Source of the DNA: an uncultured Bacteroidales bacterium
GTDB lineage: Bacteria; Bacteroidota; Bacteroidia; Bacteroidales; VadinHA17
Length of the DNA: 64,000 bases
NCBI GenBank assembly: GCA_963701745.1
Contig: CAVPBE010000001.1
Coordinates: 662,183 to 726,182, forward strand
Direction: 5' to 3'
Shown: one piece after another, positions 12,162 to 60,290 of the stretch
Position numbering within the stretch: the first letter of the stretch is position 1
How the letters are laid out: every line of letters begins with the position of its first letter
The notes under the pieces: model-generated
Told to the model about the DNA's origin: nothing
Seen by the model: only the letters and a program-made list of their open reading frames with translations
Database searches by the model: none
Translations under genes and position numbers: made by a program

Positions 12162-12170
12162 AATTCTTCT

Positions 12171-12240
12171 GCCCCCAACCCCCTAAAGGGGGCTTTAATA
12201 AATAATATGTTTAAGCCCCTCTTCAGGGGGGTAGGGGGCG
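12171..12240. repeat. G/C-rich nested-palindrome element (outer imperfect IR plus two hairpins)
   Basis: gcccccaaccccc (12171-) pairs with gggggtagggggc (-12239). Inner hairpins are ccccc-taaa-ggggg (12179-12192) and cccct-cttc-agggg (12216-12229). Confidence 0.7.
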
Positions 12241-12242
12241 AT

Positions 12243-13421
12243 TTATAAAATTGTAGAACCAGATACGGGCCGTGCGTATGCCACCACATCAGCTCCTGTA
12301 ATTTCATCTCTGCAAAGAATTATAAGCCTTTCAAGAACATTCCTGAACTCGCGGATATTCCCCGTCCATTCTATTTTCTGAAGCTCATTTATAGCGTCTT
12401 TTCTTATTGTCCTTTTGCTCATCCCGTATTCGCCGCATATAATGCTGTTGAAATGTTCGGCTAGAATTGGTATATCATCATGCCTTTCGTTGAGTGTAGG
12501 AACATGTATCAGTATTACACTCAGCCTGTGGTACAGATCTTCCCTGAAAGTGTTGGTTTCAATCTCTTTTCTGATGTTTTTGTTTGTTGCTGCAATAACC
12601 CTGACATTGACATGTATATCCTTGTCGGATCCCACACGGGTTATCTTGTTTTCCTGAAGGGCCCGAAGCACCTTTGATTGTGCTGAAAGGCTCATGTCAC
12701 CGATTTCATCCAGAAAAAGAGTTCCCCCATTAGCCTGTTCAAATTTGCCTATCCTTTGCTTAATAGCGGAAGTAAACGATCCTTTCTCATGTCCAAAAAG
12801 TTCACTTTCGATAAGTTCTGAGGGTATGGCTGCACAGTTAACCTCTACAAAAGGACCTTTTGCCCTGTTGCTTTTTTCATGGATCTGGTGAGCTACCAGC
12901 TCTTTGCCTGTACCATTGGCTCCCGTGATCAGAACACGAGCCTCCGTCGTGGCAACCCTGTCAATCATCTCCTTGACCTTCTTAATAGATTCAGATTCAC
13001 CGACAATTTCATACATCTTGCTGACCTTGTTCTTCAGCACCTGAGTCTGGGTTATAAGGGTCGATTTATCAGTGGCGTTCCTAATTGTTATCAGTAATCT
13101 GTTCAGATCGAGAGGTTTTTCGAGAAAATCAAAAGCGCCCTTCTTTATTGCTTCTACTGCAGTATCAATATTTCCATGTCCGGAGATCATAACGACAGGT
13201 ATATCTGAAGAGGTTTCACATATTTTCTGAAGTACCTCTATACCATCCATCTTTGCCATCTTTATATCACAGAGAACTATGTCGTATGAGTTGGTATTGA
13301 ACAGCTCAAGTCCGGAAGGTCCGTCTTCAGCAAGATCAACCTCATGCTTTTCATACTCCAGTACCTCTTTCAGGGTATTCCTGATGGCCCGTTCATCATC
13401 TATAACAAGTATTTTTGACAT
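12243..13421 (-). CDS. Sigma-54-dependent response regulator (REC plus AAA+), apparently without a C-terminal HTH
   Basis: 392 aa. REC domain (ILVIDDE...CDIKMAKMDG), Walker A GANGTGKE and a GAFTGA-type loop (GHEKGSFTSA). The protein ends about 30 aa after the AAA+ domain. Confidence 0.8.
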   Translation of the reverse strand: MSKILVIDDERAIRNTLKEVLEYEKHEVDLAEDGPSGLELFNTNSYDIVLCDIKMAKMDGIEVLQKICETSSDIPVVMISGHGNIDTAVEAIKKGAFDFLEKPLDLNRLLITIRNATDKSTLITQTQVLKNKVSKMYEIVGESESIKKVKEMIDRVATTEARVLITGANGTGKELVAHQIHEKSNRAKGPFVEVNCAAIPSELIESELFGHEKGSFTSAIKQRIGKFEQANGGTLFLDEIGDMSLSAQSKVLRALQENKITRVGSDKDIHVNVRVIAATNKNIRKEIETNTFREDLYHRLSVILIHVPTLNERHDDIPILAEHFNSIICGEYGMSKRTIRKDAINELQKIEWTGNIREFRNVLERLIILCRDEITGADVVAYARPVSGSTIL

Positions 13422-15852: not shown

Positions 15853-15915
15853 AGAGGTCTGTTAAGTATAGTAAAATGAGACGTAAATATATAAAACTCT
15901 GTGGAATATCCATGC

Positions 15916-16015
15916 ACTCACCCCCAACCCCCTCTCTGCTAAAGCAAAGAGGGGGCTTAAATCAATTGAATCCCCCTCTTTACATGGTAGAGAGGGGGAA
16001 TATAAGGGGGTGAGT
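15916..16015. repeat. G/C-rich nested-palindrome element (outer 10-bp IR plus two hairpins)
   Basis: actcaccccc (15916-15925) is the exact reverse complement of gggggtgagt (16006-16015). Inner hairpins are 15928-15955 (ccccctctctgc-taaa-gcaaagaggggg, 11/12 pairs) and 15971-15999 (tccccctct...agaggggga). Confidence 0.75.
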
Positions 16016-16026
16016 ATCTGTAGTTT

Positions 16027-18113: not shown

Positions 18114-18160
18114 ACCCACCCCTCACCCCACGCAAGGCGTGGCAGGCTCTCCCAGGAGGG
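18114..18160. repeat. Degenerate member of the G/C-rich palindrome family
   Basis: The box acccacccctcacccc is followed by hairpin ccacgc-aag-gcgtgg (18128-18142) and the short palindrome ctcc-ca-ggag (18148-18159). Confidence 0.45.
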
Positions 18161-18202
18161 TATCCCTTTTGATTGCCTTCAAACCTTAAAACCCTGACGC
18201 CT

Positions 18203-36985: not shown

Positions 36986-37516
36986 TCAGAAAAGAGTACC
37001 ATCGATGGGCTTGCCTGAATATTTCCTTTCGTGGTCAATAAGCCATCTTTTCTTATCGAGCCCTCCGCCATAACCTACAAGATCCCCGTCGGCGCCGATC
37101 ACCCTGTGACAAGGGATTATTATCGCAATCCTGTTTGATCCGTTTGCTCCTGCAACTGCTCTGACAGCTCCCGGATTTTTGATCAATTTAGCCAGTTCCA
37201 GGTAGGATTTGGTTTTTCCAAAAGGGATCTGCTTAAGATGATCCCAGACTGCAAGCTGAAAATCGGTCCCCGGAGTTATCAGTGGCAGTGAAAACTCTTT
37301 CCGCTTTCCTTTGAAGTATTCTTTCAGTTGTTTTTTCAGTGCTCTAAGATGCTTGTTGCTTCCTGAAATGACTGTTTCACTGAAAGTAAGGGCAAGTCTG
37401 TTGAATTCAGATTCCAGAGCAGGCCTGCTTGTGAATTCAAGCAGACAGATGCCATCCTTTGTAGCAGCTGCTGCCATTTCTCCGAGAGGAGTCTCGATTA
37501 TTGTGGTTTTTATCAT
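36986..37516 (-). CDS. ogt: Methylated-DNA--protein-cysteine methyltransferase
   Basis: Active-site PCHRVIG plus the upstream helix-turn-wing region. The likely start is MIKTTIIETPLG at 37516; the track extension to 37597 reads through a repeat element. Confidence 0.85.
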   Translation of the reverse strand: MIKTTIIETPLGEMAAAATKDGICLLEFTSRPALESEFNRLALTFSETVISGSNKHLRALKKQLKEYFKGKRKEFSLPLITPGTDFQLAVWDHLKQIPFGKTKSYLELAKLIKNPGAVRAVAGANGSNRIAIIIPCHRVIGADGDLVGYGGGLDKKRWLIDHERKYSGKPIDGTLF

Positions 37517-37519
37517 ATC

Positions 37520-37547
37520 TACCCACCCCAACCCCTCCCAGGAGGGG
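37520..37547. repeat. G/C-rich palindrome element (box plus one hairpin) abutting the ogt start codon
   Basis: The box tacccaccccaacccc (37520-37535) overlaps the palindrome cccctcc-ca-ggagggg (37532-37547). Confidence 0.7.
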
Positions 37548-37615
37548 ATCTTTAATGTGACTACTATTATTGCGACCAAGCAAAGCGAGAGAAGCAATCC
37601 TCTTCTCCTGGTATA

Positions 37616-40679: not shown

Positions 40680-41390
40680 ATGACAATATCTGATTGGTTA
40701 TCAAATAACTGGATTGAAATATTTGGTGCCTTAACCGGCATAATCTATGTTTTCCTCGAAATCAGGCAGAATATATGGCTATGGCCGGTAGGGATAATAA
40801 CATCTGCTGTTTACATAATCGTTTTCTTTACAAGCAAATTCTACGCTGATATGAGCCTGCAGGGGTATTACCTGGTAATAAGCTTTGCAGGGTGGTACTG
40901 GTGGGTCAAAGGCGGCAAACGGCAGGCGGCAGGCGGCGGGCGGAAAGAAATTGAGAAAGCTGAAGTCTCATGGCTCCCCTCCCAGGAGAGCCTGCCCCGC
41001 CTCGGCGGGGGGCTGGGGGTGGGTAATGAAGAGACTGAGAGACTCAGGGACGAAGAGACTAAGAGACTGATTGTTACAAGATTAGAACTAAAGACCGCTC
41101 TGATTCTGGCAGCAGTATTTGTACTATTGTATTTTATACTGTGGTTTGGACTGTCTCAACTGACCGATTCCCCGGTTCCCGAATGGGATTCATTTATAAC
41201 CTCCCTTTCGATCATAGCTACATGGATGCTTGCGAGAAAGATCTATGAGCACTGGTTTTTATGGATAGTTGTTAATTCCGCATCTGTAATACTGTTTTTA
41301 ACAAGAGGCCTTTATCCGACATTAATCCTGTATATGGTTTATCTATTAATGTCGTTTGTTGGACTTAAAGTATGGAAGCGATCCTTATAA
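40680..41390 (+). CDS. PnuC-family transporter (PnuT-like thiamine/nicotinamide-riboside type) with an in-frame G/C-rich insertion
   Basis: PnuC N-terminal pattern WIEIFGALTGIIYVFLEIRQNIWLWPVGIITSAVY...LQGYYLVISFAGWYWW and C-terminal TMs. It starts 4 nt after the receptor gene. Confidence 0.8.
   Translation: MTISDWLSNNWIEIFGALTGIIYVFLEIRQNIWLWPVGIITSAVYIIVFFTSKFYADMSLQGYYLVISFAGWYWWVKGGKRQAAGGGRKEIEKAEVSWLPSQESLPRLGGGLGVGNEETERLRDEETKRLIVTRLELKTALILAAVFVLLYFILWFGLSQLTDSPVPEWDSFITSLSIIATWMLARKIYEHWFLWIVVNSASVILFLTRGLYPTLILYMVYLLMSFVGLKVWKRSL
40911..41070. repeat. G/C-rich repeat element embedded in-frame in the pnuC-like gene
   Basis: A ggcgg/ggcagg simple repeat (40911-40943), the degenerate palindrome cccctcccaggagag, the perfect palindrome ccccgcc-tc-ggcgggg (40995-41010), the box gggggctgggggtgggta (41008-41025) and gagact repeats (41028-41068). 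Confidence 0.7.
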
Positions 41391-43656: not shown

Positions 43657-43715
43657 ATTATATCAAGTTATTAGGTAGGAATTGTTAGTCCTTTTTGTAC
43701 TTTTATCTGTACTCT

Positions 43716-43830
43716 AAATCCCCTACATTCTTCCGCCGTAGCGGTTACGCGAAGCCCAAGAAGGGGACTTAATGATTTATCAATATATTACTTAAACCCC
43801 CTTTGGGGGAAGGTTGGGCAAAGGGGTATA
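43716..43830. repeat. G/C-rich element: long hairpin plus short hairpin plus GGTTGGG..GGGGTAT box
   Basis: aaatcccct (43716-43724) pairs with aggggactt (43762-43770). This is followed by ccccc-ttt-ggggg (43797-43809) and the box aaggttgggcaaaggggtata (43810-43830). Confidence 0.75.
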
Positions 43831-43855
43831 GGAAGATTTATTAAAAGGACTAGAT

Positions 43856-45640
43856 CTATCCAAAGAACTTTAAGTTTTTAGATATAATCCCTTTCCCCTC
43901 CAATATTGTAATATATCTGTCTGCAGCTACATTTCTGTAAACCTCTTTTTTCCCACCCGTCCAGAAGATTTCAAGTGTATCAATTGTCTTTGAGCTGCCA
44001 AGGCCAATATGTACCCTGGGATCATTATTGCTCAGGTAGCTTGTTGCCCATTGATTGACAAGTACCTGCCTATTTCCGCCGGCTGTTGCGACAACTTTAG
44101 CGGCTATTGCTGAAGCCGGGCCCTTACTGCCTTTCAGCGTTATCCCGACCCAGTGATTCGCATTGCCCCCGGCATTTCTCAGTAACGCAGCTGTAGCTTT
44201 CAGGTCAACATGAGAAATTATGATATCCATATCCCCGTCATTGTCAAAATCCCATACAGCAAGACCTCTTCCCGAACGTTTTACCTTGAAATATTCTCCA
44301 TACTCCTTTCCAGTGTCTTTGAAATGTCCTTTGCCGTCATTTTCAAGCAGCAATGGATATTGAAGTACAAGTTCCTCAGCTGTTCCGTTTGCAGAAACAA
44401 TATCCAGATCCCCATCATTATCAAAATCGAGAAAAGCTGCAGACCAGGCACCTTTCCCGGCCAGGGGACCCTGAACGCCGCTTATTTCGGTAATATCTTC
44501 GAAGAAACCGTTGCCCTTATTGCGGTAAAGTGCTCCATAATCCAGATCAACCACCAGAATATCAATAAGCCCGTCCCCATCCACATCACCAATTGACCCA
44601 TGCATTGAACCGCTTCCTATACCATTGCTGTTCGCAGCTACACCAATCTCAACACCAACCTCCTTATAGACACCGTTATCATTTCTGAACATGAAGTTAA
44701 GCTGATGATCGTTAGCCTGGAAAATATCAATATCTCCATCATCATCATAATCATATACTGTTAGCCCCATGCATTTTGAATCGGGATAAAACAGGTTGTT
44801 CTTTTGGGTAACATCAACAAACTTCCCATCAGGTCCTTGCTCATATAGCATTGAAGCCTGGCCTTTATATTCAGACGGCTGTGGCATTAAGTTTGGGGTT
44901 GCAGGTGTAAAATAGCCAGGATCGAAGGCAAGGAAATTGCCGACCATTGCATCGAGCCTCCCATCGTGGTTTTGATCCCAGAATGAGACGCCAATGCTCC
45001 ATTTTACAAATCCGTTTAATTTTTCCGGACCCCTGAGACCTGTATAATTTGTTAAGTCAGTAAATGTGCCGTTACCATTGTTCCTGTAAAAAACATTCGG
45101 ACCATAATTAAGCAGGTAGAGATCCTGGTCCCCGTCATTATCATAATCTATTGCACCAGCAGCCATGCTCCAGTTAGTATCATTAATACCTGCCTTCTCT
45201 GAAACCTCTGTAAATGTACCGTTGCCATTGTTTTTATAGAGCCTGTCAGGAGTATTAATGAATTTCTTTCCCCCGGGATCAGATATGCCTTCAATATATG
45301 TTCCGTTCATCATGAACAGATCCATCAGGTTGTCGTTGTTGTAATCAAATATTGTTATTCCTGATCCGCTGCTTTCAAGAATATTCCTGTAGGAAAGATC
45401 GCCGAATGTGTATTTGAAATCAATGCCGGCTTGTTTTGTTACATCTGTAAATAGTATACTTTTTTTCTGAGCCGTTAATTGAAAAGAAAAGCACATTATG
45501 AAAAGGTATAAAAGAAAATTTCTAGTCTTTTTGAATATATGACCACCTTTCTTATTTCCCCCAGGGGGGAAAAGATAAAATTCCTTCCCCCTTGGGGAAA
45601 GGTTGGGAAGATGGTATTTAAAATTAATAATACCAGTCAT
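43856..45640 (-). CDS. CRTAC1-like FG-GAP/VCBS repeat protein with C-terminal ASPIC/UnbV domain
   Basis: Repeated YDNDGDxDLY/FxxNxGNGTFxDVT units and a C-terminal HWVGITLKG...LSNNDPRVHIGLG...LEIFWTGG region. The first ~35 codons are a translated repeat element, so the true start is uncertain. Confidence 0.8.
   Translation of the reverse strand: MTGIINFKYHLPNLSPRGKEFYLFPPGGNKKGGHIFKKTRNFLLYLFIMCFSFQLTAQKKSILFTDVTKQAGIDFKYTFGDLSYRNILESSGSGITIFDYNNDNLMDLFMMNGTYIEGISDPGGKKFINTPDRLYKNNGNGTFTEVSEKAGINDTNWSMAAGAIDYDNDGDQDLYLLNYGPNVFYRNNGNGTFTDLTNYTGLRGPEKLNGFVKWSIGVSFWDQNHDGRLDAMVGNFLAFDPGYFTPATPNLMPQPSEYKGQASMLYEQGPDGKFVDVTQKNNLFYPDSKCMGLTVYDYDDDGDIDIFQANDHQLNFMFRNDNGVYKEVGVEIGVAANSNGIGSGSMHGSIGDVDGDGLIDILVVDLDYGALYRNKGNGFFEDITEISGVQGPLAGKGAWSAAFLDFDNDGDLDIVSANGTAEELVLQYPLLLENDGKGHFKDTGKEYGEYFKVKRSGRGLAVWDFDNDGDMDIIISHVDLKATAALLRNAGGNANHWVGITLKGSKGPASAIAAKVVATAGGNRQVLVNQWATSYLSNNDPRVHIGLGSSKTIDTLEIFWTGGKKEVYRNVAADRYITILEGKGIISKNLKFFG
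45555..45617. repeat. G/C-rich element: two hairpins plus GGTTGGG..GGTAT box
   Basis: tttccccc-ag-gggggaaa (45555-45572), ccttccccc-tt-ggggaaagg (45583-45602) and the box ggttgggaagatggtat (45601-45617). It is highly similar by eye to the copy at 50705-50769. Confidence 0.8.
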
Positions 45641-48600
45641 TTAACTACAATATTAGAATTTCCTCTTACTGCATTTAAATATTCATCCGCATTTACAACT
45701 CTTGTATTGTATTCCCGGTTATATTTTTTCAATTCGGGATCATCCGGGTACTTATCACTTTCCGAGGGAGGATAATTTTTCATTCCATGGAAGGGAAGAG
45801 GCAAAACTGTACTGCCGAACGCTGTATTCAGGTCGCCATCTTTAACCCATCCCACACTGCGGATAAGGAAATCCCTTTTCCATCCTTTGGCTAATGGCGG
45901 CAATGTTGTGGCATTGAACCTGACAGTAGTTTCATCACCGGCATTTGTAATAATGTATTTGTTATCCGATTCTGATAAGAGCGGCAAGACATCACCAAAT
46001 CGTGTGTAATTTCCTGACAGATCTCTCCATTTCGGTCCATTTTTAACAACAGAGTAATCGAACCAGTGAGGTCCGTACCGGCTGCCTTTTCTGAAAGGCT
46101 CTGAGAAGCCTCTGTAGTGAAGGTCCGCACTTGAAGGTTTAAGAACATTCCTTACAACAGGTGCCTCAGGTAAATCTTCAGCGAAAAATATCTGATCCCA
46201 GTATATCTCCATATTTGTCCTGATCCTTATCCGGTGATCTTTTGTAAGGAATTTCCCTGAAAGATCATTTATTACAGTTTTATCCTTACCCATAGGAAAT
46301 CCGGCGCTGCTGATAACCGTTTCCCACTCGCCGTTTTTATTTAATACCTGAATCAAAGGAGGAGTTACTATGATATCATACGATTGAGAAATTGCAGCAT
46401 TTATACTGGCATCTGTAGGGAATATCCATCCATTCATAAAAAGAAACAATCTTCCTGACACATCAATGTTTCCCGGATCAATTATTAGATCCTTCATCTC
46501 TGTTATTCCCTGGTATTTACCTGATGTGAATCCTGAAAGGTAATTGTCATCTTTTTGAGATAAACATGATAGTACATCATTGCCCTCTGAATCTTCAGCT
46601 GAAACCGGAATATATTTCTCTTTAACAGTAAGGATCTTTAAAACCGGGAATGGGGGAGGGCCAAACTGTTCAGGAACAAAAATATCTAATGAATCGGGGT
46701 GATCCACGGCGACAAGTTCAAGTTTGTCAATATAAATGGTTTCCCAGAGTTCAGAAGTGACCTGAATTGAATAACTTCCACTCTCTTGTTTAAGCATATC
46801 ACCCGGAATTTTTAAATAATCATCCGAGGCATCTGCAAAAGCATAGGAGGTTGCCCCGCCCATTATGCCAGTTGGCATTCCAAGGGCACTTCTCCATAAT
46901 ATATCTTTCACAAATACATATTCTTGCCCATTCCATCCATAGAGAAAAGGACATGAACCTTTAAGGGTTTGCTCCTCGATAAGTGCCTGGTCGGATCCGG
47001 GCATAAAAATATTCTGAGGCACTCCGTTAGTCCATCTGATCCTGATTATATCAGCTCTCGAATTACTTCCGATTCCAAAATGGATGTTGGGATCAGTCAC
47101 AACCAATGTTTCATAGAGGTCGCCGGCACGCATCTCGACCTTCGCCCCGATTCCGAAGTGATTATTTTTAGAGCTGCCTGCTCTCAGCCCCACAAGTTTC
47201 ATAGTTATAAAATGGTTGTTATTTCCTCCGTCATTACGCAGAAGCGAAATTCCGCCATTGAGGCCTGCAACAGCAACGTCAAGGTCCCCATCGTTATTAT
47301 AGTCAAAAATTGCTATTTGTTTTCCGGCTTTTGCTTCAGCCGGAATCAGATCTGAAACATTTGTAAAACTTCCTTTTCCATCATTGTAATAAAGGAAGAT
47401 TCCACGTCCCTCCTTTTCCTGTGATTCCCCTGCCATAATAAGATCGAGGAATCCATCATTATTAAAATCCAGGAAAGAAGCATCAAATACATTTACGTTT
47501 TCAAGGGACCGGAACATTTCTGAATTATTCTTTTCTTTCTCAAAAGTACCATTGCGCAGATTCCTTAGAAGTGAATGATTCCCCGCGGAACCCGACCCGA
47601 TAAAAAGGTCAAGAAATCCGTCGTTATTGTAATCTCCGACTGTAACTGTCCCCGCTCCTTCATACCCTTTCAAGCCGCTTTCAGCAGCAATATCCTTAAA
47701 AACACCCTGCCGCTGATTTGAATATAAGCAGGGGCCAGAGTTTTTATTGACAGTTATAAAGTCGATATCCTCATCATCATCAAAATCTCCAAAAGCTGCA
47801 TCTGTGGTTATAATTCCGCCATTCTGAGGGCCAAGTTTTGTTGACTGATCTTCAAAAGTTCCGTCTCCGTTATTCCTTAGGAGCAGATTCGAATCTGACA
47901 GGATCTCAAGCAGATCAAGATCTCCGTCATGGTCCATATCAAAAAAAAGAGCCTTTTTCCCACCTGTCCTGCTTCCGGCTTTTGCCTTTTCAGTTACATC
48001 TTCAAATGTTCCTTTTCCTGTGTTCCTGTAAAGGATATCACCACCTTCCTTCATTACAAAAAGGTCAGGGAAGCCGTCATTATCATAATCGGCAAATGCT
48101 ACAGATGATTCATTTCCGGAATGATCTAAGCCTGTTTCTTTTGACACATCTGTATATTTCCCCATTTCATTATTGAACAGAAAATGTTTATATGATGAAG
48201 ATACAGGATCATAACTGCCGACATAAAGATCAATATCATCGTCACCGTCATAATCACATTCTTCGACATGAGCTGAATATTTGATTTCTGAATTTTTACC
48301 TCCTTCTGACCTCGGGACAAGATCCATACCGGCTGCCGAAGCTACATTTGTAAATCTTATAATATCCAAAAGGGAAGCATTTTCTGTTTTCCGGGGTGAT
48401 GAAGACTGTCTGTCGAAAGTTATAACAGGAAAGCCTATAAGAGATCCTCCGGGGCCCTTCAGATCCATTATCCCGGCCTGGTATGGTGAAGAAACCTTCA
48501 TATAATTGTGGAAAATCGTAAACTGGATAATTGCCTTTTCCTTATCCTTTTTTCTCAGTAATGAAAGAGTTTTATTATAGTATTCAACTGCTTCTTTTGG

Positions 48601-49218
48601 GAATTCAGGAAACTGCTTATTGATTATTTCCATCTGCTCCAGTGCCTTATCGAATTCCCCTTTCCTGATAAGAATATCTGTCAGGTTGAGACGCGGGACC
48701 AGGTTTGCGGGTGCTTTTTCGACAAGAATGTCAATATAATTTTCACGCTGTTTCTGGGAATCTTCGTCTGGAAGAGACGAAAACAATTCAGAAATATCAA
48801 AAAGTATTTTTAAATGATCAGGCGCAAATTCTAGTGCACTCTTAAGCTCTTTAATAGCCTTATCACGTTCATTGTTCATCTTGAAAACAGTGGCCAGGAT
48901 AAGTCTGATATCCGGGTCTTTCGGATCGATCTTAATAGCTTTATTCAGTTCTATTTCTGCTTCAGGATACTTGGCCATCCTTAAGTAAGTCAGCCCAAGA
49001 TTTGCATATCCAAACTTATCTTTTGGTTCAAGCTCAATAAACTTCTGGAATTCCTTTTCAGCTTCCTCCAGCTTAAACTCCTCAAGATAAGCAAGACCAA
49101 GTGTTTTAGCTGTAATAAGATCCGTCGATTTTTGTCCGGACTTTTCTCCACTGTTCCTGCATCCAGGAAATAATAAGATTAAAACTGTGGTAAGTAATAT
49201 AAGGTAACTCTTTTTCAT
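45637..49218 (-). CDS. Large lipoprotein: TPR repeats plus FG-GAP/VCBS repeats plus ASPIC/UnbV, with a ~445-aa uncharacterised C-terminal region
   Basis: 1193 aa. Lipobox LLFPGC, N-terminal TPR region, DYDNDGFPDLF-type repeats and an UnbV-like region (NHFITMKLVG...RIRWTNG). The C-terminal region starts near GSCPFLYGWNG. ATGA overlap with the next gene. Confidence 0.8.
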   Translation of the reverse strand: MKKSYLILLTTVLILLFPGCRNSGEKSGQKSTDLITAKTLGLAYLEEFKLEEAEKEFQKFIELEPKDKFGYANLGLTYLRMAKYPEAEIELNKAIKIDPKDPDIRLILATVFKMNNERDKAIKELKSALEFAPDHLKILFDISELFSSLPDEDSQKQRENYIDILVEKAPANLVPRLNLTDILIRKGEFDKALEQMEIINKQFPEFPKEAVEYYNKTLSLLRKKDKEKAIIQFTIFHNYMKVSSPYQAGIMDLKGPGGSLIGFPVITFDRQSSSPRKTENASLLDIIRFTNVASAAGMDLVPRSEGGKNSEIKYSAHVEECDYDGDDDIDLYVGSYDPVSSSYKHFLFNNEMGKYTDVSKETGLDHSGNESSVAFADYDNDGFPDLFVMKEGGDILYRNTGKGTFEDVTEKAKAGSRTGGKKALFFDMDHDGDLDLLEILSDSNLLLRNNGDGTFEDQSTKLGPQNGGIITTDAAFGDFDDDEDIDFITVNKNSGPCLYSNQRQGVFKDIAAESGLKGYEGAGTVTVGDYNNDGFLDLFIGSGSAGNHSLLRNLRNGTFEKEKNNSEMFRSLENVNVFDASFLDFNNDGFLDLIMAGESQEKEGRGIFLYYNDGKGSFTNVSDLIPAEAKAGKQIAIFDYNNDGDLDVAVAGLNGGISLLRNDGGNNNHFITMKLVGLRAGSSKNNHFGIGAKVEMRAGDLYETLVVTDPNIHFGIGSNSRADIIRIRWTNGVPQNIFMPGSDQALIEEQTLKGSCPFLYGWNGQEYVFVKDILWRSALGMPTGIMGGATSYAFADASDDYLKIPGDMLKQESGSYSIQVTSELWETIYIDKLELVAVDHPDSLDIFVPEQFGPPPFPVLKILTVKEKYIPVSAEDSEGNDVLSCLSQKDDNYLSGFTSGKYQGITEMKDLIIDPGNIDVSGRLFLFMNGWIFPTDASINAAISQSYDIIVTPPLIQVLNKNGEWETVISSAGFPMGKDKTVINDLSGKFLTKDHRIRIRTNMEIYWDQIFFAEDLPEAPVVRNVLKPSSADLHYRGFSEPFRKGSRYGPHWFDYSVVKNGPKWRDLSGNYTRFGDVLPLLSESDNKYIITNAGDETTVRFNATTLPPLAKGWKRDFLIRSVGWVKDGDLNTAFGSTVLPLPFHGMKNYPPSESDKYPDDPELKKYNREYNTRVVNADEYLNAVRGNSNIVVK

Positions 49219-49268
49219 GCCATCAAAATTAGCAAATAAAACAAAATCATATCCCGACTAATTATAGG

Positions 49269-49448
49269 AGATTCCTCATTTCGCCAACCTTCACTATGTT
49301 CAGTTTGGCTCCATTCGGAATGACATGGACTTTTATAATTATTGGGAGTAGGGAAGCAGGGGCGTTTCGAATCCTCGAAACGCCCCTGCTTCCCTACTCC
49401 CAATCAAAAAAAAGCAACAATGTCATCCTGAACGAAGTGAAGGATCTC
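49269..49448. repeat. Nested palindromic element with a 30-bp perfect hairpin
   Basis: attgggagtagggaagcaggggcgtttcga (49341-49370) is the exact reverse complement of 49375-49404, with the 4-nt loop atcc. It is flanked by imperfect inverted copies of the motif tgtcatcctgaacgaagtgaaggatctc (49420-49448; degenerate inverse at 49269-49325). Confidence 0.8.
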
Positions 49449-49493
49449 ATAGTATTATATATCAATAGGTTAATGAATATTGTCATTCAAAGG

Positions 49494-50798
49494 TCAGCGA
49501 GGAATCTCATTTTTAAAAGTGATAGGTACGCCATTCATTGTTTTCATTATTTCAAATTTTCCTTTACGGTTGCCTTTATCATCAAACTGAATTGGCCCGG
49601 TGACACCATTAAAGTGAATATTCTTAAGCGATTTCTGTATCATCTCGCGATCGGAATCTCCTGCTTGCCTGATAGCCTCAATAAGTAAATTCATGCAGTC
49701 ATATGCATATGATGCAACCATTCCCGGCGAATATTTGTATTTCTTTTCGAATTCCTGCCTGAATGTCAGATTTTCTGCTTTTGGCCATTCACCTGCTGGA
49801 ACTGAAAGGAAATTATCGAAATACCTCAATTCCTGGGCCGATAGTGCATTTTCATTCATTATAGTTAACGGACCAAAAACCGGCATCACAGGATTTCCCT
49901 TTTTTATTTCCCGGACTAATTCTACTGAGACTGAAGGCTGGCAGAACAAAACAATGCAACCGGCTCCTGCTTCGCTTATCTTTTCAGCCAGAATTCCTGA
50001 CCTCTGAACATAGTCTTCAAGATTGAATTTTAAAGGGTCAGGCTTTCCTTTCATCTTTACGAAATTCATGAAACTTCCAAAGCTTTTTTCGGAATCATAG
50101 TCACTCCCATGCACTAAAACTACATTTCTGTATTTCCTTATTTCATATATTTCGTTTAACATTGAAGCAGCCTGCTGATTGTCATTTGGAAAACAGTTAA
50201 AGAACCAGGGGACGAATGCCTGCGACAATGTCGGGTCACCTGACCATGCCGAAAGGAAAACCACCTGGGATTTTGTCGCTGCCTGTTCAACAAGGTGGGC
50301 ATTTCGTCCGTCGTGTAATCCGATAAGAGCCCATACTTTTTCCTCAAAAATAAGGTTTACTGCCTGTTTTGATCCGGTTCCCCAGGGACCTTCCATCGTA
50401 CGATAAACAAGCTGAAATGTCAGACCCCTGAGGCCGCCTTTTTCATTTGCATTTTTTATAGCCATTTCAGCACCATGCACAGCTGAGGAATAGCTGCTGT
50501 CCTGGACTAATAACCCGATTTTTATGTTATCGGCCCGGTTATCATTGATCTGAGAAAAAGCTGGATAATGGATGACAAATGAGGATATTACCAGGACCAG
50601 ACAGATTTGAAAGATTTTTACCCTTACCCCGATAGGTTTGTTACATTTCAGAATTTCGATAGCAAATATATTGGTGGTTCTTATTGATTTTAACCCCCTT
50701 TCAATTTCCCCCAAGGGGGAAAGGTTTTTGGCTCCTTCCCCCATGGGGGAAGGTTGGGAAGGGGGTATGTTTAAAAGGAACATAAGCAAATCAGACAA
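49494..50798 (-). CDS. LivK-type (type I, Peripla_BP_6-like) periplasmic solute-binding protein, copy 1
   Basis: Collinear with branched-chain/aromatic-acid-type SBPs (IKIGLL...AIKNANEKGG...KVWALIG...YAYDCMNLLIEAI...GVTGPIQFD). The N-terminal ~45 codons include a translated repeat element, so the start is uncertain. Confidence 0.75.
   Translation of the reverse strand: MSDLLMFLLNIPPSQPSPMGEGAKNLSPLGEIERGLKSIRTTNIFAIEILKCNKPIGVRVKIFQICLVLVISSFVIHYPAFSQINDNRADNIKIGLLVQDSSYSSAVHGAEMAIKNANEKGGLRGLTFQLVYRTMEGPWGTGSKQAVNLIFEEKVWALIGLHDGRNAHLVEQAATKSQVVFLSAWSGDPTLSQAFVPWFFNCFPNDNQQAASMLNEIYEIRKYRNVVLVHGSDYDSEKSFGSFMNFVKMKGKPDPLKFNLEDYVQRSGILAEKISEAGAGCIVLFCQPSVSVELVREIKKGNPVMPVFGPLTIMNENALSAQELRYFDNFLSVPAGEWPKAENLTFRQEFEKKYKYSPGMVASYAYDCMNLLIEAIRQAGDSDREMIQKSLKNIHFNGVTGPIQFDDKGNRKGKFEIMKTMNGVPITFKNEIPR
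50693..50769. repeat. G/C-rich element: two hairpins plus GGTTGGG..GGGGTAT box
   Basis: tttccccc-aa-gggggaaa (50705-50722), ccttccccc-at-gggggaagg (50734-50753, 9-bp perfect arms) and the box ggttgggaagggggtatg (50752-50769). Confidence 0.8.
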
Positions 50799-50927
50799 TT
50801 TTAACCTTAGATGAGAACTGTTACATGAATTGTGAAGAAATCCCTAGCTCCCGAAACTTCGGGGTTAGACTTAATGAATGGTCAGTAATTACGAATTACC
50901 TCATTCTGAGGAGACTTGCAGGCGAGT

Positions 50928-58470: not shown

Positions 58471-60141
58471 TTAGGGTTCTTTTACTGCCAGGATCTGATT
58501 GGCTTTAATATTTTCAAGCGTCTGAATTTTTCCCGAGGGCCATGTTATTTCAATCCTTTCAACAATTTCATTCCCGGCCAGTCCGAAATGTATTCTCGGA
58601 TCATTCTGTGAAAGGTAACCGGTCGTGGTTTTTTTCTGTGCAATCTGTGTTTTGCCTCCTGAGGTTATTTTAATCCTTGCGCCTATCCCTTCCCTGTTGC
58701 TTGTGGTACCTTCAAGGGTGAGCATAAGCCAGTTATTCTGGTTCCCCTTGTTGTTCCTGAGAAAAACTGCCCGGCTGTTAAGATTAACTATGAAAATATC
58801 AAGATCGCCATCATTGTCATAATCCCCTATGCATGCACCCCTTCCCACATGTTCCTCGCTGAAATACCTGCCGAGTTCCAGGGAGACATCCTTGAATACT
58901 CCGTTTCCTTCATTCTCAAAAAGCTGGTCTTCCTGGCCATAAAGGTGTTTTAGCGCGCCGTTGGTCTTAAAAATATCCTGATCACCGTCATTATCATAAT
59001 CTAAGAAAGAAGAAGACCATCCGACGAACTGTGCTGCCTGCATTGAGATATTGGATGACACTCCCTTATCCGAAAATATTCCGTTACCCAGATTTTCATA
59101 AAGTGAGCAATAAGTATCATCCGATACAAAAAGGTCGAGCAATCCATCATTATTGTAATCTGCAAAGTCGACCGACATACTAACTGTAGCTTCCCCTGCC
59201 TGGCTGAAGGCAGTCCCCGACATAGTTCCCTTATCGACAAATCCCTTGCCTCCTTCATTGTGCCACAGATAATTCAATGTATGATCGTTTGCAACAAAAA
59301 TATCAATGAACCCGTCCTCGTCATAATCAGCTGCACCAACACCCATCGCCCTTCCATCCATGTCGGTTATTCCCATTTTTAATGTAACATCCTCAAAGGT
59401 ACCGTCTCCGTTGTTATGATAAAGGATATCTTTCTGTGCGTCGTAGGCCATTGGCCCCGGAAATCCGTCCGGTGCATAGTAATACTTGTAATTTGGATCA
59501 AAGGCAAGATAATTTCCCACATAGAGATCGAGAAAGCTGTCATTGTCATAATCTGCCCATACAGCGCCGACACTGCATTCATTTCCGCCTGCAACATTTG
59601 CCCGCTTTGTTACTTCAGTAAATGATCCGTTACGGTTATTTTTCAGGAGGACATTCGGACCATAATTGCTGATAAAAAGATCAGGATAGCCGTCATTATT
59701 GAAATCACCTGCAACCGCACCCATACTATACCATGGTCCGCTCACACCTGCTTTCTTTGTGACATCTTCAAATGTCCCATTGCCCTTGTTCCTGTAAAGG
59801 TGATTTCCAGGCATTTCGGATGGTTTTTCGCTCTTGCTTACACCATCAAGCCAGGTACCACTGCAAACATATATATCAATATATCCATCCTGGTCAAAGT
59901 CAAGGAAAGCAGCGCCGCCACCGTCCGACTGAATAATATTGGTCAGGTCATCATCGCCGATCGAATGCACAAAATCAAGTCCGATCTGCTGACCAATTTC
60001 CTGGTAGAAGTCATCAGTTGCAGCTGTAACAGCAGCATCAGACTGCTTTGCAGATCCTGAGGCAGTCTTGCTTCCCTGACGGCAACCGGTAAAAAGCAAT
60101 ATAACTGACAAGACAATGGGAATAAATGGATTGTTTCGCAT
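58471..60141 (-). CDS. CRTAC1-like FG-GAP/VCBS repeat lipoprotein with ASPIC/UnbV C-terminal domain
   Basis: Lipobox LFTGC, repeated DFDQDGYIDIY/NKGNGTFEDVT units and C-terminal NWLMLTLEG...GYLSQNDPRIHFGLG...IEITWPSG. Confidence 0.85.
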   Translation of the reverse strand: MRNNPFIPIVLSVILLFTGCRQGSKTASGSAKQSDAAVTAATDDFYQEIGQQIGLDFVHSIGDDDLTNIIQSDGGGAAFLDFDQDGYIDIYVCSGTWLDGVSKSEKPSEMPGNHLYRNKGNGTFEDVTKKAGVSGPWYSMGAVAGDFNNDGYPDLFISNYGPNVLLKNNRNGSFTEVTKRANVAGGNECSVGAVWADYDNDSFLDLYVGNYLAFDPNYKYYYAPDGFPGPMAYDAQKDILYHNNGDGTFEDVTLKMGITDMDGRAMGVGAADYDEDGFIDIFVANDHTLNYLWHNEGGKGFVDKGTMSGTAFSQAGEATVSMSVDFADYNNDGLLDLFVSDDTYCSLYENLGNGIFSDKGVSSNISMQAAQFVGWSSSFLDYDNDGDQDIFKTNGALKHLYGQEDQLFENEGNGVFKDVSLELGRYFSEEHVGRGACIGDYDNDGDLDIFIVNLNSRAVFLRNNKGNQNNWLMLTLEGTTSNREGIGARIKITSGGKTQIAQKKTTTGYLSQNDPRIHFGLAGNEIVERIEITWPSGKIQTLENIKANQILAVKEP

Positions 60142-60220
60142 AACAGGTTTAAGATTAAGGGCCCAAATATATCAATATGATCTAAATAAAAACCAAGTGT
60201 AAATTTTGCTTGCACTTGAT

Positions 60221-60290
60221 AATCCCCTAAATCCCCTGAAGGGGACTTGTTAAATAAACTAAATTATACCCCCTTTAGGGGAGGGGGGCA
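60221..60290. repeat. G/C-rich hairpin element (short version of the 43716-43770 hairpin plus a second hairpin)
   Basis: Direct aatcccct x2, then tcccc-tgaa-gggga (60232-60245) ending ggggactt, using the same arms as 43716/43762. This is followed by cccct-tt-agggg (60270-60281) within ataccccctttaggggagggggg. Confidence 0.65.

Follow-up and report, generated by a model that had tools for sequence, protein, structure and literature searches.

Three copies of a short element, a GC-rich hairpin followed by a conserved box, stand in one orientation between minus-strand genes of an uncultured Bacteroidales bacterium, and the question is whether they are regulatory sites, signals acting in the transcripts, or repeats that have simply been inserted there. 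The DNA under study (hereafter the window) is a stretch of 64,000 nt, positions 662,183 to 726,182 of contig CAVPBE010000001.1 (assembly GCA_963701745.1). We consider it probable, at roughly 70%, that the three copies are part of an uncatalogued repeat family, whose members are small, GC-rich, non-coding palindromes, resemble repetitive extragenic palindromes (REP), their paired hairpin-forming arrangements (REPIN) and miniature inverted-repeat transposable elements (MITE), and are mobile or were so recently.

The repeated unit

The preliminary description of this DNA had placed the copies at 43794-43828, 45582-45617 and 50733-50768 (copies 1, 2 and 3), coordinates which proved exact for all three. 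A repeat finder puts them into one family (D7) of the window. Indeed, CCCCCNNGGGGG occurs three times for 0.04 expected occurrences, and the box with its spacing (GGTTGGGN5GGTAT) twice for 0.27; the 7-mer GGTTGGG alone shows no enrichment (7 occurrences for 7.4 expected).

The building block is a module made of a hairpin, with a C-run as 5' arm and a G-run as 3' arm, and of an adjoining conserved box of about 15 nt, whose consensus reads GGTTGGGA[AT]GGGGGTAT or, on the opposite strand, the complement of this. The unit previously proposed, two hairpins plus one box, is present but too short. The near-identical second hairpin reported ahead of copies 2 and 3 is found (P2 in Table 1), and a left box is found as well, complementary to the right box in inverted orientation; each copy is therefore an inverted doublet of about 80 nt, whose left half (box plus hairpin) repeats the right half (hairpin plus box) in inverted and diverged form. 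The full Bacteroidales unit reads T-N-ACCCCCTTTCCCG (left box), TTTCCCCC-aa-GGGGGAAA, a spacer, CTCCTTCCCCC-nn-GGGGGAAGG, TT and GGGAAGGGGGTAT. Copies 2 and 3 have the full doublet form, and copy 1 joins one type-A module to a different partner, which resembles the "type B" module AAGT-CCCCCCTGGGGG-ATTTAGGGGT found at site 3 (see below) of a related locus, L120.

As the outer boxes are complementary, a single strand can fold as a long hairpin, as a REPIN does, or into a three-way junction. For copy 3, 12165-12245 and 15912-16018 the DNA fold of lowest energy is one long hairpin each (z -3.5 to -7.3), with copy 3 reaching -24.7 kcal/mol on the plus and -26.6 kcal/mol on the minus strand (z -3.5 and -4.6); the diverged copy 2 folds with a z of about -1.

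Scanning species-representative genomes with the pattern GGGGRAAGGTTGGGN{5,6}GGTAT gave at least 118 loci. About 13 of the matches listed look like chance, for an estimate of about 17 from the information content of the pattern, and the remaining listed loci have in common the left arm CTCCTTCCCCC, which the pattern does not force, and GGGA[AT]GGGGGTAT. A covariance model (R1) was made from 55 of the listed doublets and run over the window beside a hairpin scan. Aligned, these doublets show 92.7% paired cells over the three helices, and P2 comes in two forms, TTTCCCCC/GGGGGAAA and TCCCGC/GCGGGA, a covariation confounded by palindromy and by the search pattern, which fixes the 3' half in every sequence.

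Filled and empty sites in related genomes

The genes flanking the copies are all on the minus strand and follow, in order of transcription, as DAHP synthase, periplasmic binding protein, TPR/FG-GAP/ASPIC, FG-GAP/ASPIC, asparagine-synthase-like and radical-SAM genes. They had been labelled an accessory cluster, wrongly, as the gene order is conserved among relatives. DAHP synthase homologues with 88-95% identity were taken from Bacteroidales metagenome assemblies and five syntenic loci were read (loci of relatives carry numbers in the range L119-L124). At site 3, between the DAHP synthase and binding-protein genes, the window has copy 3, and L121, L122, L123 and L124 have an empty site with overlapping genes; L120 carries a different doublet here, and L119 the doublet of L120 plus an extra hairpin. 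Site 2, between the TPR/FG-GAP and FG-GAP genes, holds copy 2 in the window and orthologous copies in L119, L120 and L124, and is empty, with a 14-nt gene overlap, in L121 and L122. Site 1, between the FG-GAP and asparagine-synthase-like genes, holds copy 1 in the window, an orthologous and complete type-A doublet in L124 (8005-8089) and an unrelated repeat in L119, L120 and L122, and is an empty 13-nt gap in L121. Since close relatives, whose neighbouring protein is 91-94% identical, have either overlapping genes without the element or a different element, the elements are insertion polymorphisms. Presence/absence polymorphism among the window and L119-L124 extends to sites 1-3, a site at 60.2 kb and the PnuC gene, and in the shared stretch of about 24 kb the hairpin count gives five sites in the window versus one in L121.

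The insertion at site 1 of L124, of about 215 nt, is flanked by the direct repeat ATAACTT, for a single AAAACTC at the empty L121 site; window copy 1 and L124 have a direct repeat of 6-7 nt, (A/T)AACTT, at this site, which as a target duplication is suggestive only. At sites 2, 3 and 60.2 kb the filled and empty alleles have flanks too diverged for exact insertion junctions to be defined. The unrelated site-1 repeat (L119:17600-17700, L120:17625-17715, L122:13785-13880), AGTGACTAGAGT...ACTCTAGGCACTCTAGGCACT, is made of short direct and inverted CTAGAGT/GGCACT units and lies in the same stop-to-start gap of about 12 nt, which looks like an insertion hot spot.

A MITE form and a possible mode of spread

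Several Bacteroidales genomes carry a 221-bp unit in which AT-rich arms surround the doublet as a core, and which ends in terminal inverted repeats (TIRs), (T/A)ATGA(C/G)TATCGG...CCGATA(C/G)TCAT. Units within one genome are near-identical to their ends and unrelated outside, and they are flanked by 9-bp AT-rich direct repeats (10/10 in L102, 9/9 in L058, 8/9 in L117, L092, L071 and L042). A 297-bp MITE of L071 has the same ends and another palindromic cargo. In relatives, the family is thus a MITE by its TIRs, target duplications and presence/absence polymorphism. Beside copy 2 the window has an AT-rich remnant, which contains the stop codon (TGA) of the upstream gene and an overlapping ATG; compared by eye, this flank, ATGACTGGTATTATTAATTTTAA, looks like a shortened or degraded arm of the 221-bp MITE.

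From the TIRs and 9-bp target duplications of the 221-bp composite we infer a DDE-type transposase supplied in trans, by which the composite would have spread in a cut-and-paste or copy-and-paste manner. Solo modules and palindromes nested in loops may have spread otherwise, either by a single-strand route that recognises hairpins, as in enzymes like the HUH nucleases of IS200 and the REP-associated tyrosine transposases (RAYT), or by template switching. The window elements would then have landed in tiny or overlapping junctions of co-transcribed genes, and effects on the host would be by-products and not a dedicated function. Those observed are the loss of overlapping, presumably translationally coupled junctions between neighbours, the gain of start and stop codons, open reading frames (ORFs) extended at their N-terminal side and possibly changed mRNA stability.

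Members of the family in the window and beyond

The hairpin scan and R1 give about ten members within the 64 kb, nine of them intergenic, which leaves about seven beyond the three copies, mostly doublets (Table 1). The boxes at 37520, 41008, 15916 and 12171, already suspected to be related, are true relatives with a matching box-plus-hairpin architecture. R1 matches are weak (E 0.004-0.1) at 15914-16015, 60220-60290, 12168-12244, 37515-37596 and copy 1, loci which differ in sequence and have a common architecture, with outer boxes complementary in each full doublet (GCCCCCAACC/GGTAGGGGGC, ACTCACCCCC/GGGGGTGAGT, ACCACCTTTC/GGGAAGATGGT). The members occupy short gaps, mostly between co-directional genes, such as the 81-nt gap between minus-strand genes filled by the doublet at 12168, the sole exception being the member inside PnuC. 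The 60.2-kb doublet has orthologues in L119 and L120, that of L119 with the palindrome GCCAGCTGGC in place of the hairpin loop, and is absent from L121. In the loci of relatives, R1 finds copies besides the pattern seeds.

Table 1. Members of the family in the window, with component parts of the full copies (R1, covariance model)
Feature	Positions	Strand	Remarks
Copy 3, full type-A doublet	50691..50770	+	R1 86.1 bits, E 3e-21
Copy 3, left box ACCCCCTTTC	50693-50702	+	
Copy 3, P2	50705-50722	+	
Copy 3, P3	50734-50753	+	
Copy 3, right box GGTTGGGAAGGGGGTAT	50752-50768	+	
Copy 2, full type-A doublet	45540..45619	+	R1 79.8 bits
Copy 2, left box ACCACCTTTC	45542-45551	+	
Copy 2, P2	45555-45572	+	
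Copy 2, P3	45583-45602	+	
Copy 2, right box	45601-45617	+	
AT-rich arm remnant beside copy 2, ttaaaattaataataccagtcat	45618..45640	+	compared by eye with MITE ends ATGA(C/G)TATCGGTAATTAAT
Copy 1, single type-A module (hairpin CCCCC-ttt-GGGGG, box GGTTGGGCAAAGGGGTAT)	43794..43828	+	R1 15 bits, E 0.1
Copy 1 partner module, box ACTCTAAAT plus CCCC...GGGG hairpin	43711..43770	+	nested insert of about 39 nt in the loop (43724-43762)
Doublet GCCCCCAACC-CCCCTaaAGGGGG ... CCCCTcttcAGGGG-GGTAGGGGGC	12168..12244		R1 18 bits, E 0.014; fold -23.4 kcal/mol, z -4.7
Doublet, outer boxes ACTCACCCCC / GGGGGTGAGT around two CCCCCTCT...AGAGGGGG hairpins	15914..16015		R1 20.1 bits, E 0.004; folded as 15912-16018, -30.6 kcal/mol, z -7.3
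Probable diverged member CCCCTCACCCC... with CTCCCAGGAGGG	18119..18165		inverted pair I1 with 40972-41018; missed by R1
Single module in opposite orientation, TACCCACCCCAACC + CCCCTCC-ca-GGAGGGG	37515..37551		R1 17.8 bits, E 0.017
In-frame member inside PnuC, two hairpins + box GGCTGGGGGTGGGTAA	40970..41029	+	
Doublet TCCCCTAAA-TCCCCTgaAGGGGA ... CCCCCTttAGGGG-AGGGGGG	60220..60290		R1 18.3 bits, E 0.012

The 35-nt module is not confined to Bacteroidales: among the matches listed it is also found in Burkholderiales and other Beta-, Gamma- and Alphaproteobacteria, in a "Deltaproteobacteria" metagenome-assembled genome (MAG), in Dehalococcoidia (including chromosome-level assemblies), SAR202, Anaerolinea and Nitrospinota, and in one Peribacteria genome of the candidate phyla radiation (CPR). 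In these listed modules the loops have 4-10 nt and the loci 24-69% G+C. Outside Bacteroidales the module is often near to or paired with variants such as ACCCCCACCCTAACC-CTCCCCC...GGGGGAGGG, and its organisation, inverted pairs or 46-nt tandem arrays (L073, L082), resembles clusters of bacterial interspersed mosaic elements (BIME). The arrays at L082:3280-3500 and L073:6690-6780 (Pseudomonadota MAG CTOTU46466) are head-to-tail type-A arrays with a 46-nt period and without spacers; in L082 a second array, of GATGATCCCCCGCAAGCGGGGGGGGGAGAT hairpins, precedes the type-A array. In 2.9 million viral contigs the pattern has no match, and a literature search with exact 14-mers of the sequence gave no relevant paper.

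Maintenance of the hairpins

The earlier remark that the hairpin arms differ between copies but stay complementary is correct, and orthologous copies strengthen it by their compensatory changes. The arms of P2 at site 2 are TTTCCCCC/GGGGGAAA in the window, TTTCCCCC/GGCGGAAA in L124 (with one mismatch), TCCGCC/GGCGGA in L119 and ATCCCGC/GCGGGAT in L120, which on comparison of the sequences looks like a compensatory series, and the outer box of the window has changed from ACCCCCTT/AAGGGGGT to ACCATCTT/AAGGTGGT. Selection on the hairpins may be the cause, or else gene conversion by other copies, or template switching that corrects the palindrome. Lasting single mismatches are found in some lineages, e.g. 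CCCTC/GCGGG in L074 and L104. The complementary arms of a palindromic mobile element do not by themselves imply a regulatory role in the host; their upkeep is considered further below.

Also, hairpin loops and spacers are hot spots of small palindromic inserts (L043, L044, L080, L106, L119 and the copy 1 partner). One such insert, CTTCGCGTA(A/G)CCGCT(A/T)CGGCG(G/A)AAG, is present at 43724-43762 of the window and in the P2 loop of L043, that is, in hairpin loops of unrelated doublets in different genomes, and appears to be another tiny nested element.

Regulatory and structural alternatives

The shared orientation of the three copies, 5' of genes, is a feature of the window and not of the family at large: among the matches listed, the long ORFs flanking 63 Bacteroidales type-A loci are in 20 cases ++, in 20 --, in 19 divergent and in 4 convergent, and the element is without preferred orientation relative to transcription. 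This bears directly on the idea that a transcription regulator binds the box and coordinates the three downstream genes. A conserved 17-nt box does stand upstream of three cluster genes in one orientation, but three copies share an orientation with a chance of 1 in 4, the modules at 15914, 37515 and 60220 score best with R1 on the opposite strand, the box adjoins unrelated genes in dozens of genomes of several phyla, and close relatives have no box at the corresponding promoter-less junctions, all of which makes such a site extremely improbable. We also find it very unlikely that the element is a structured non-coding or cis-regulatory RNA, a three-way junction transcribed with the downstream genes and controlling them. 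The high proportion of paired cells in the three helices, a C-G to G-C swap in P2 of nine listed sequences, and the changes of window copy 2, which are compensatory on the mRNA-sense strand, speak for an RNA. However, the elements occur in both orientations, in gaps between divergent genes, inside a coding gene and in the tandem arrays, each strand folds at minimum energy as a plain long palindrome, and the covariation is subject to the confounding described above. No Rfam family matched: the whole window gave no match at the gathering threshold, and a permissive search of 50600-50900 gave generic miRNA-hairpin matches only, far below gathering scores. An RNA signal within the operon or a regulator site, both suggested in the preliminary description, are thus unsupported, given the element-free overlapping operons of relatives, the random orientation and the unrelated neighbouring genes in several phyla.

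Host recruitment of an element of mobile origin, kept for function as a structural signal (a stabiliser of mRNA 3' ends, an operon terminator or insulator, or a supercoiling or cruciform site), seems to us rather doubtful. Roles of this kind have been proposed for the REP and BIME sequences of E. coli. The elements mostly fill short spacers and often lie 0-50 nt past a stop codon (26 nt for copy 1 and 19 nt for copy 2), they form strong GC hairpins, which compensatory changes preserve in orthologous copies, and on the sense strand AATTTTATCT follows P3 of copy 2 and GGTTTTTGG follows P2 of copy 3, as would suit such a signal. Against it stand the random orientation to the upstream gene (20 versus 20 listed loci), a T-rich tail after P2 in only 17 of the 54 doublets listed, six terminator-like sites in the region versus 7.1 expected from shuffles, and the fact that relatives with overlapping genes and no element retain the operon. 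An intrinsic terminator was rejected on the T tail, the orientation and the site count. An integron attC site, suggested by the likeness of CCCAAC/GTTGGG to R''/R' boxes, was dropped by inspection, because most copies have one box only and the flanking genes are a syntenic operon and not cassettes. The REP- or MITE-like nature, which the preliminary description had listed among its options, is borne out by elements that are multi-copy, palindromic, extragenic and polymorphic between close relatives, with TIRs and target duplications in related genomes.

Several observations weigh against a mobile family of this type. No transposase was linked to it by tblastn with approximate queries (E. coli RAYT and IS200 TnpA) over the window and the 118 loci: nothing was found in the window or beside the elements, and the only matches are in L026, where a transposase-like gene contains the pattern match, which is attributed to chance. 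The window copies have degraded arms only, clean TIRs and target-site duplications being seen in relatives, and the foot of the hairpin is without the GT[AG]G of REPs and adjoins a conserved flank of about 15 nt. The compensatory changes in vertically inherited copies hint at a continuing constraint on the hairpins, whereas a dead, purely selfish insertion would need no such upkeep. Finally, REP/REPIN families are described as specific to lineages and passed on vertically (bioRxiv 10.1101/2022.05.22.493013), and near-identity of a 35-nt module across phyla is unusual for them. If the spread over phyla is the transfer of one family, it contradicts the view of REP-like repeats as bound to lineages and would then point to a widely shared mobilising enzyme. 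A more speculative and, in our estimation, unlikely proposal is that the C-run hairpin with its GGTTGGGA(A/T)GGGGGTAT box may be more than MITE cargo, namely an independent class of ultra-small hairpin elements, with single-strand mobility through recognition of hairpins, insertion in loops and spacers of other palindromes and in frame in genes, and phylum crossing, or may be kept in many phyla since conserved host machinery recognises it; the latter option, if true, would account for a 35-mer that is nearly identical in Bacteroidota, Chloroflexota and CPR as well as for the compensatory upkeep of hairpins in vertical copies.

Effects on host genes and neighbouring repeats

The window PnuC (40680-41390, plus strand) has 36 more residues than its L120 orthologue, in frame (40905-41075), the insertion being a GC-rich palindromic element between the simple repeats GGCAGGC (x3) and AGAGACT (x4). 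Compared with L122, the window has a further nested hairpin of 21 nt, or 7 codons, and the frame is intact each time. A different situation is found at copy 2: the FG-GAP/ASPIC ORF (43856-45640, minus strand) starts at an ATG which overlaps the upstream stop codon (ATGA) and reads through the element, which places about 35 residues ahead of the signal peptide, and the sole in-frame ATG further on falls within the hydrophobic core of this peptide. In L119 a stop breaks the read-through and the ATG comes after the element; copy 2 may thus have altered the initiation of this gene. In the binding-protein gene (49494-50798, minus strand), at about 50615-50625, the window has GGGTAAAAATC where L119 and L120 start with ...GGGGTAAAAATG, and the usual ATG is therefore ATC, with the sole upstream in-frame ATG in the P3 loop of copy 3; the ATC could be a rare start codon, a mark of a pseudogene, an assembly error, or the consequence of a start supplied by the element. 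Just ahead of this start stands what remains of a box, GGGGTAAGGGT, from the kind of doublet found in L119 and L120. A coding role of copies 2 and 3 themselves was rejected, as the ORFs through them are not conserved and a 1-nt difference in L119 creates a stop inside the element.

These elements explain ORFs that seem to start in GC-rich palindromes, genes without a normal start codon, and differences of 20-40 residues in length between orthologues, including the 36-residue PnuC insert. The family shows that small palindromic elements repeatedly strike operon junctions of originally overlapping genes, and is a tractable case of compensatory hairpin upkeep after insertion.

Other repeats are found in the same region. 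A second palindromic family, GAGATYCYTC...GRATGAC(A), e.g. GAGATCCTTCACTTCGTTCAGGATGACA, is present in the window at 49422-49448, 49482-49508 and about 49270-49330, and at L071:1688-1715 and L092:2381-2408, and is the cargo of the 297-bp L071 MITE. Its copies flank a near-perfect palindrome of 62 nt (49340-49405), GGGAGTAGGGAAGCAGGGGCGTTTCGA...TCGAAACGCCCCTGCTTCCCTACTCCC, whose ends are GTAG (5') and CTAC (3'). This palindrome is similar to the "double-foot" REPs known from RAYT subclass 2.4, is in single copy in the window and is absent from all fetched loci; the gap containing it has 276 nt in the window versus 25-49 nt in L121, L122 and L124. The direct repeats of 30-60 nt (families D1-D6; 44200-48300 and 58780-59920) are not non-coding repeats: they are coding FG-GAP/VCBS repeats of three paralogous ASPIC-type proteins.

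Relation to known repeat families

Intrinsic terminators have GC-rich hairpins near stop codons, as here, where some copies also have a T-rich tail; the element differs in that the T-tract is not conserved (17/54 listed doublets), in having no orientation preference, and in its conserved box and inverted doublet. With REP, BIME and REPIN sequences it shares short imperfect palindromes with a conserved flank in many extragenic copies, an organisation as singles, inverted doublets folding as one long hairpin and clusters or tandem arrays, and the possibility of in-frame insertion into genes (PMC6006769). The family lacks two traits of REPs, namely the GT[AG]G tag and lineage specificity. Indeed, neither the consensus CTCCTTCCCCC-nn-GGGGGAAGGTTGGGAAGGGGGTAT nor its complement shows GT[AG]G at the foot, in contrast to the REPs listed in the supplement of PMC6006769, and the 5' arm is a C-run on both strands, unlike the GTAG-GGG...CCC of the subclass 2.4 REPs listed there. 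The published REP/RAYT lists, including subclass 2.6 and the widely scattered subclass 2.4, hold nothing similar (PMC6006769), the "atypical" subclass 2.6 REPs of Bacteroidetes (e.g. GCTAGCGCGAGCGTCCCGCTCGTG) being unrelated in sequence. Approximate queries matched no RAYT in the window or beside the elements of the 118 loci. This family crosses phyla, REPIN-RAYT systems being described as mostly vertically inherited.

Small palindromic repeats in frame within protein-coding genes, and nested in one another, are a feature of two other groups. Rickettsia palindromic elements (RPE) have about 100-150 bp and are confined to Rickettsia, and small dispersed repeats (SDR) are cyanobacterial and of 21-27 nt, reportedly described by Elhai et al. 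in 2008. The insertion in PnuC and the nesting in loops of L043, L080, L106 and the copy 1 partner resemble both, with differences in sequence and host range, as compared by description.

The form seen in relatives has a parallel in bacterial MITEs, such as Correia/NEMIS of Neisseria and the modular "BrickBuilt" MITEs of Porphyromonas gingivalis. The 221-bp non-coding unit with its TIRs and 9-bp target duplications, its polymorphism between close relatives, the modular cargo (L071, same ends and different core) and the insertion between operon genes all agree with a MITE; the GC-rich doublet differs from one in occurring without arms too, and in being present, as doublet or module, in phyla where the Bacteroidales arms are not seen. 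The family is unusual for its kind in its spread over phyla, its modular MITE cargo, its nesting and its in-frame insertion into a gene.

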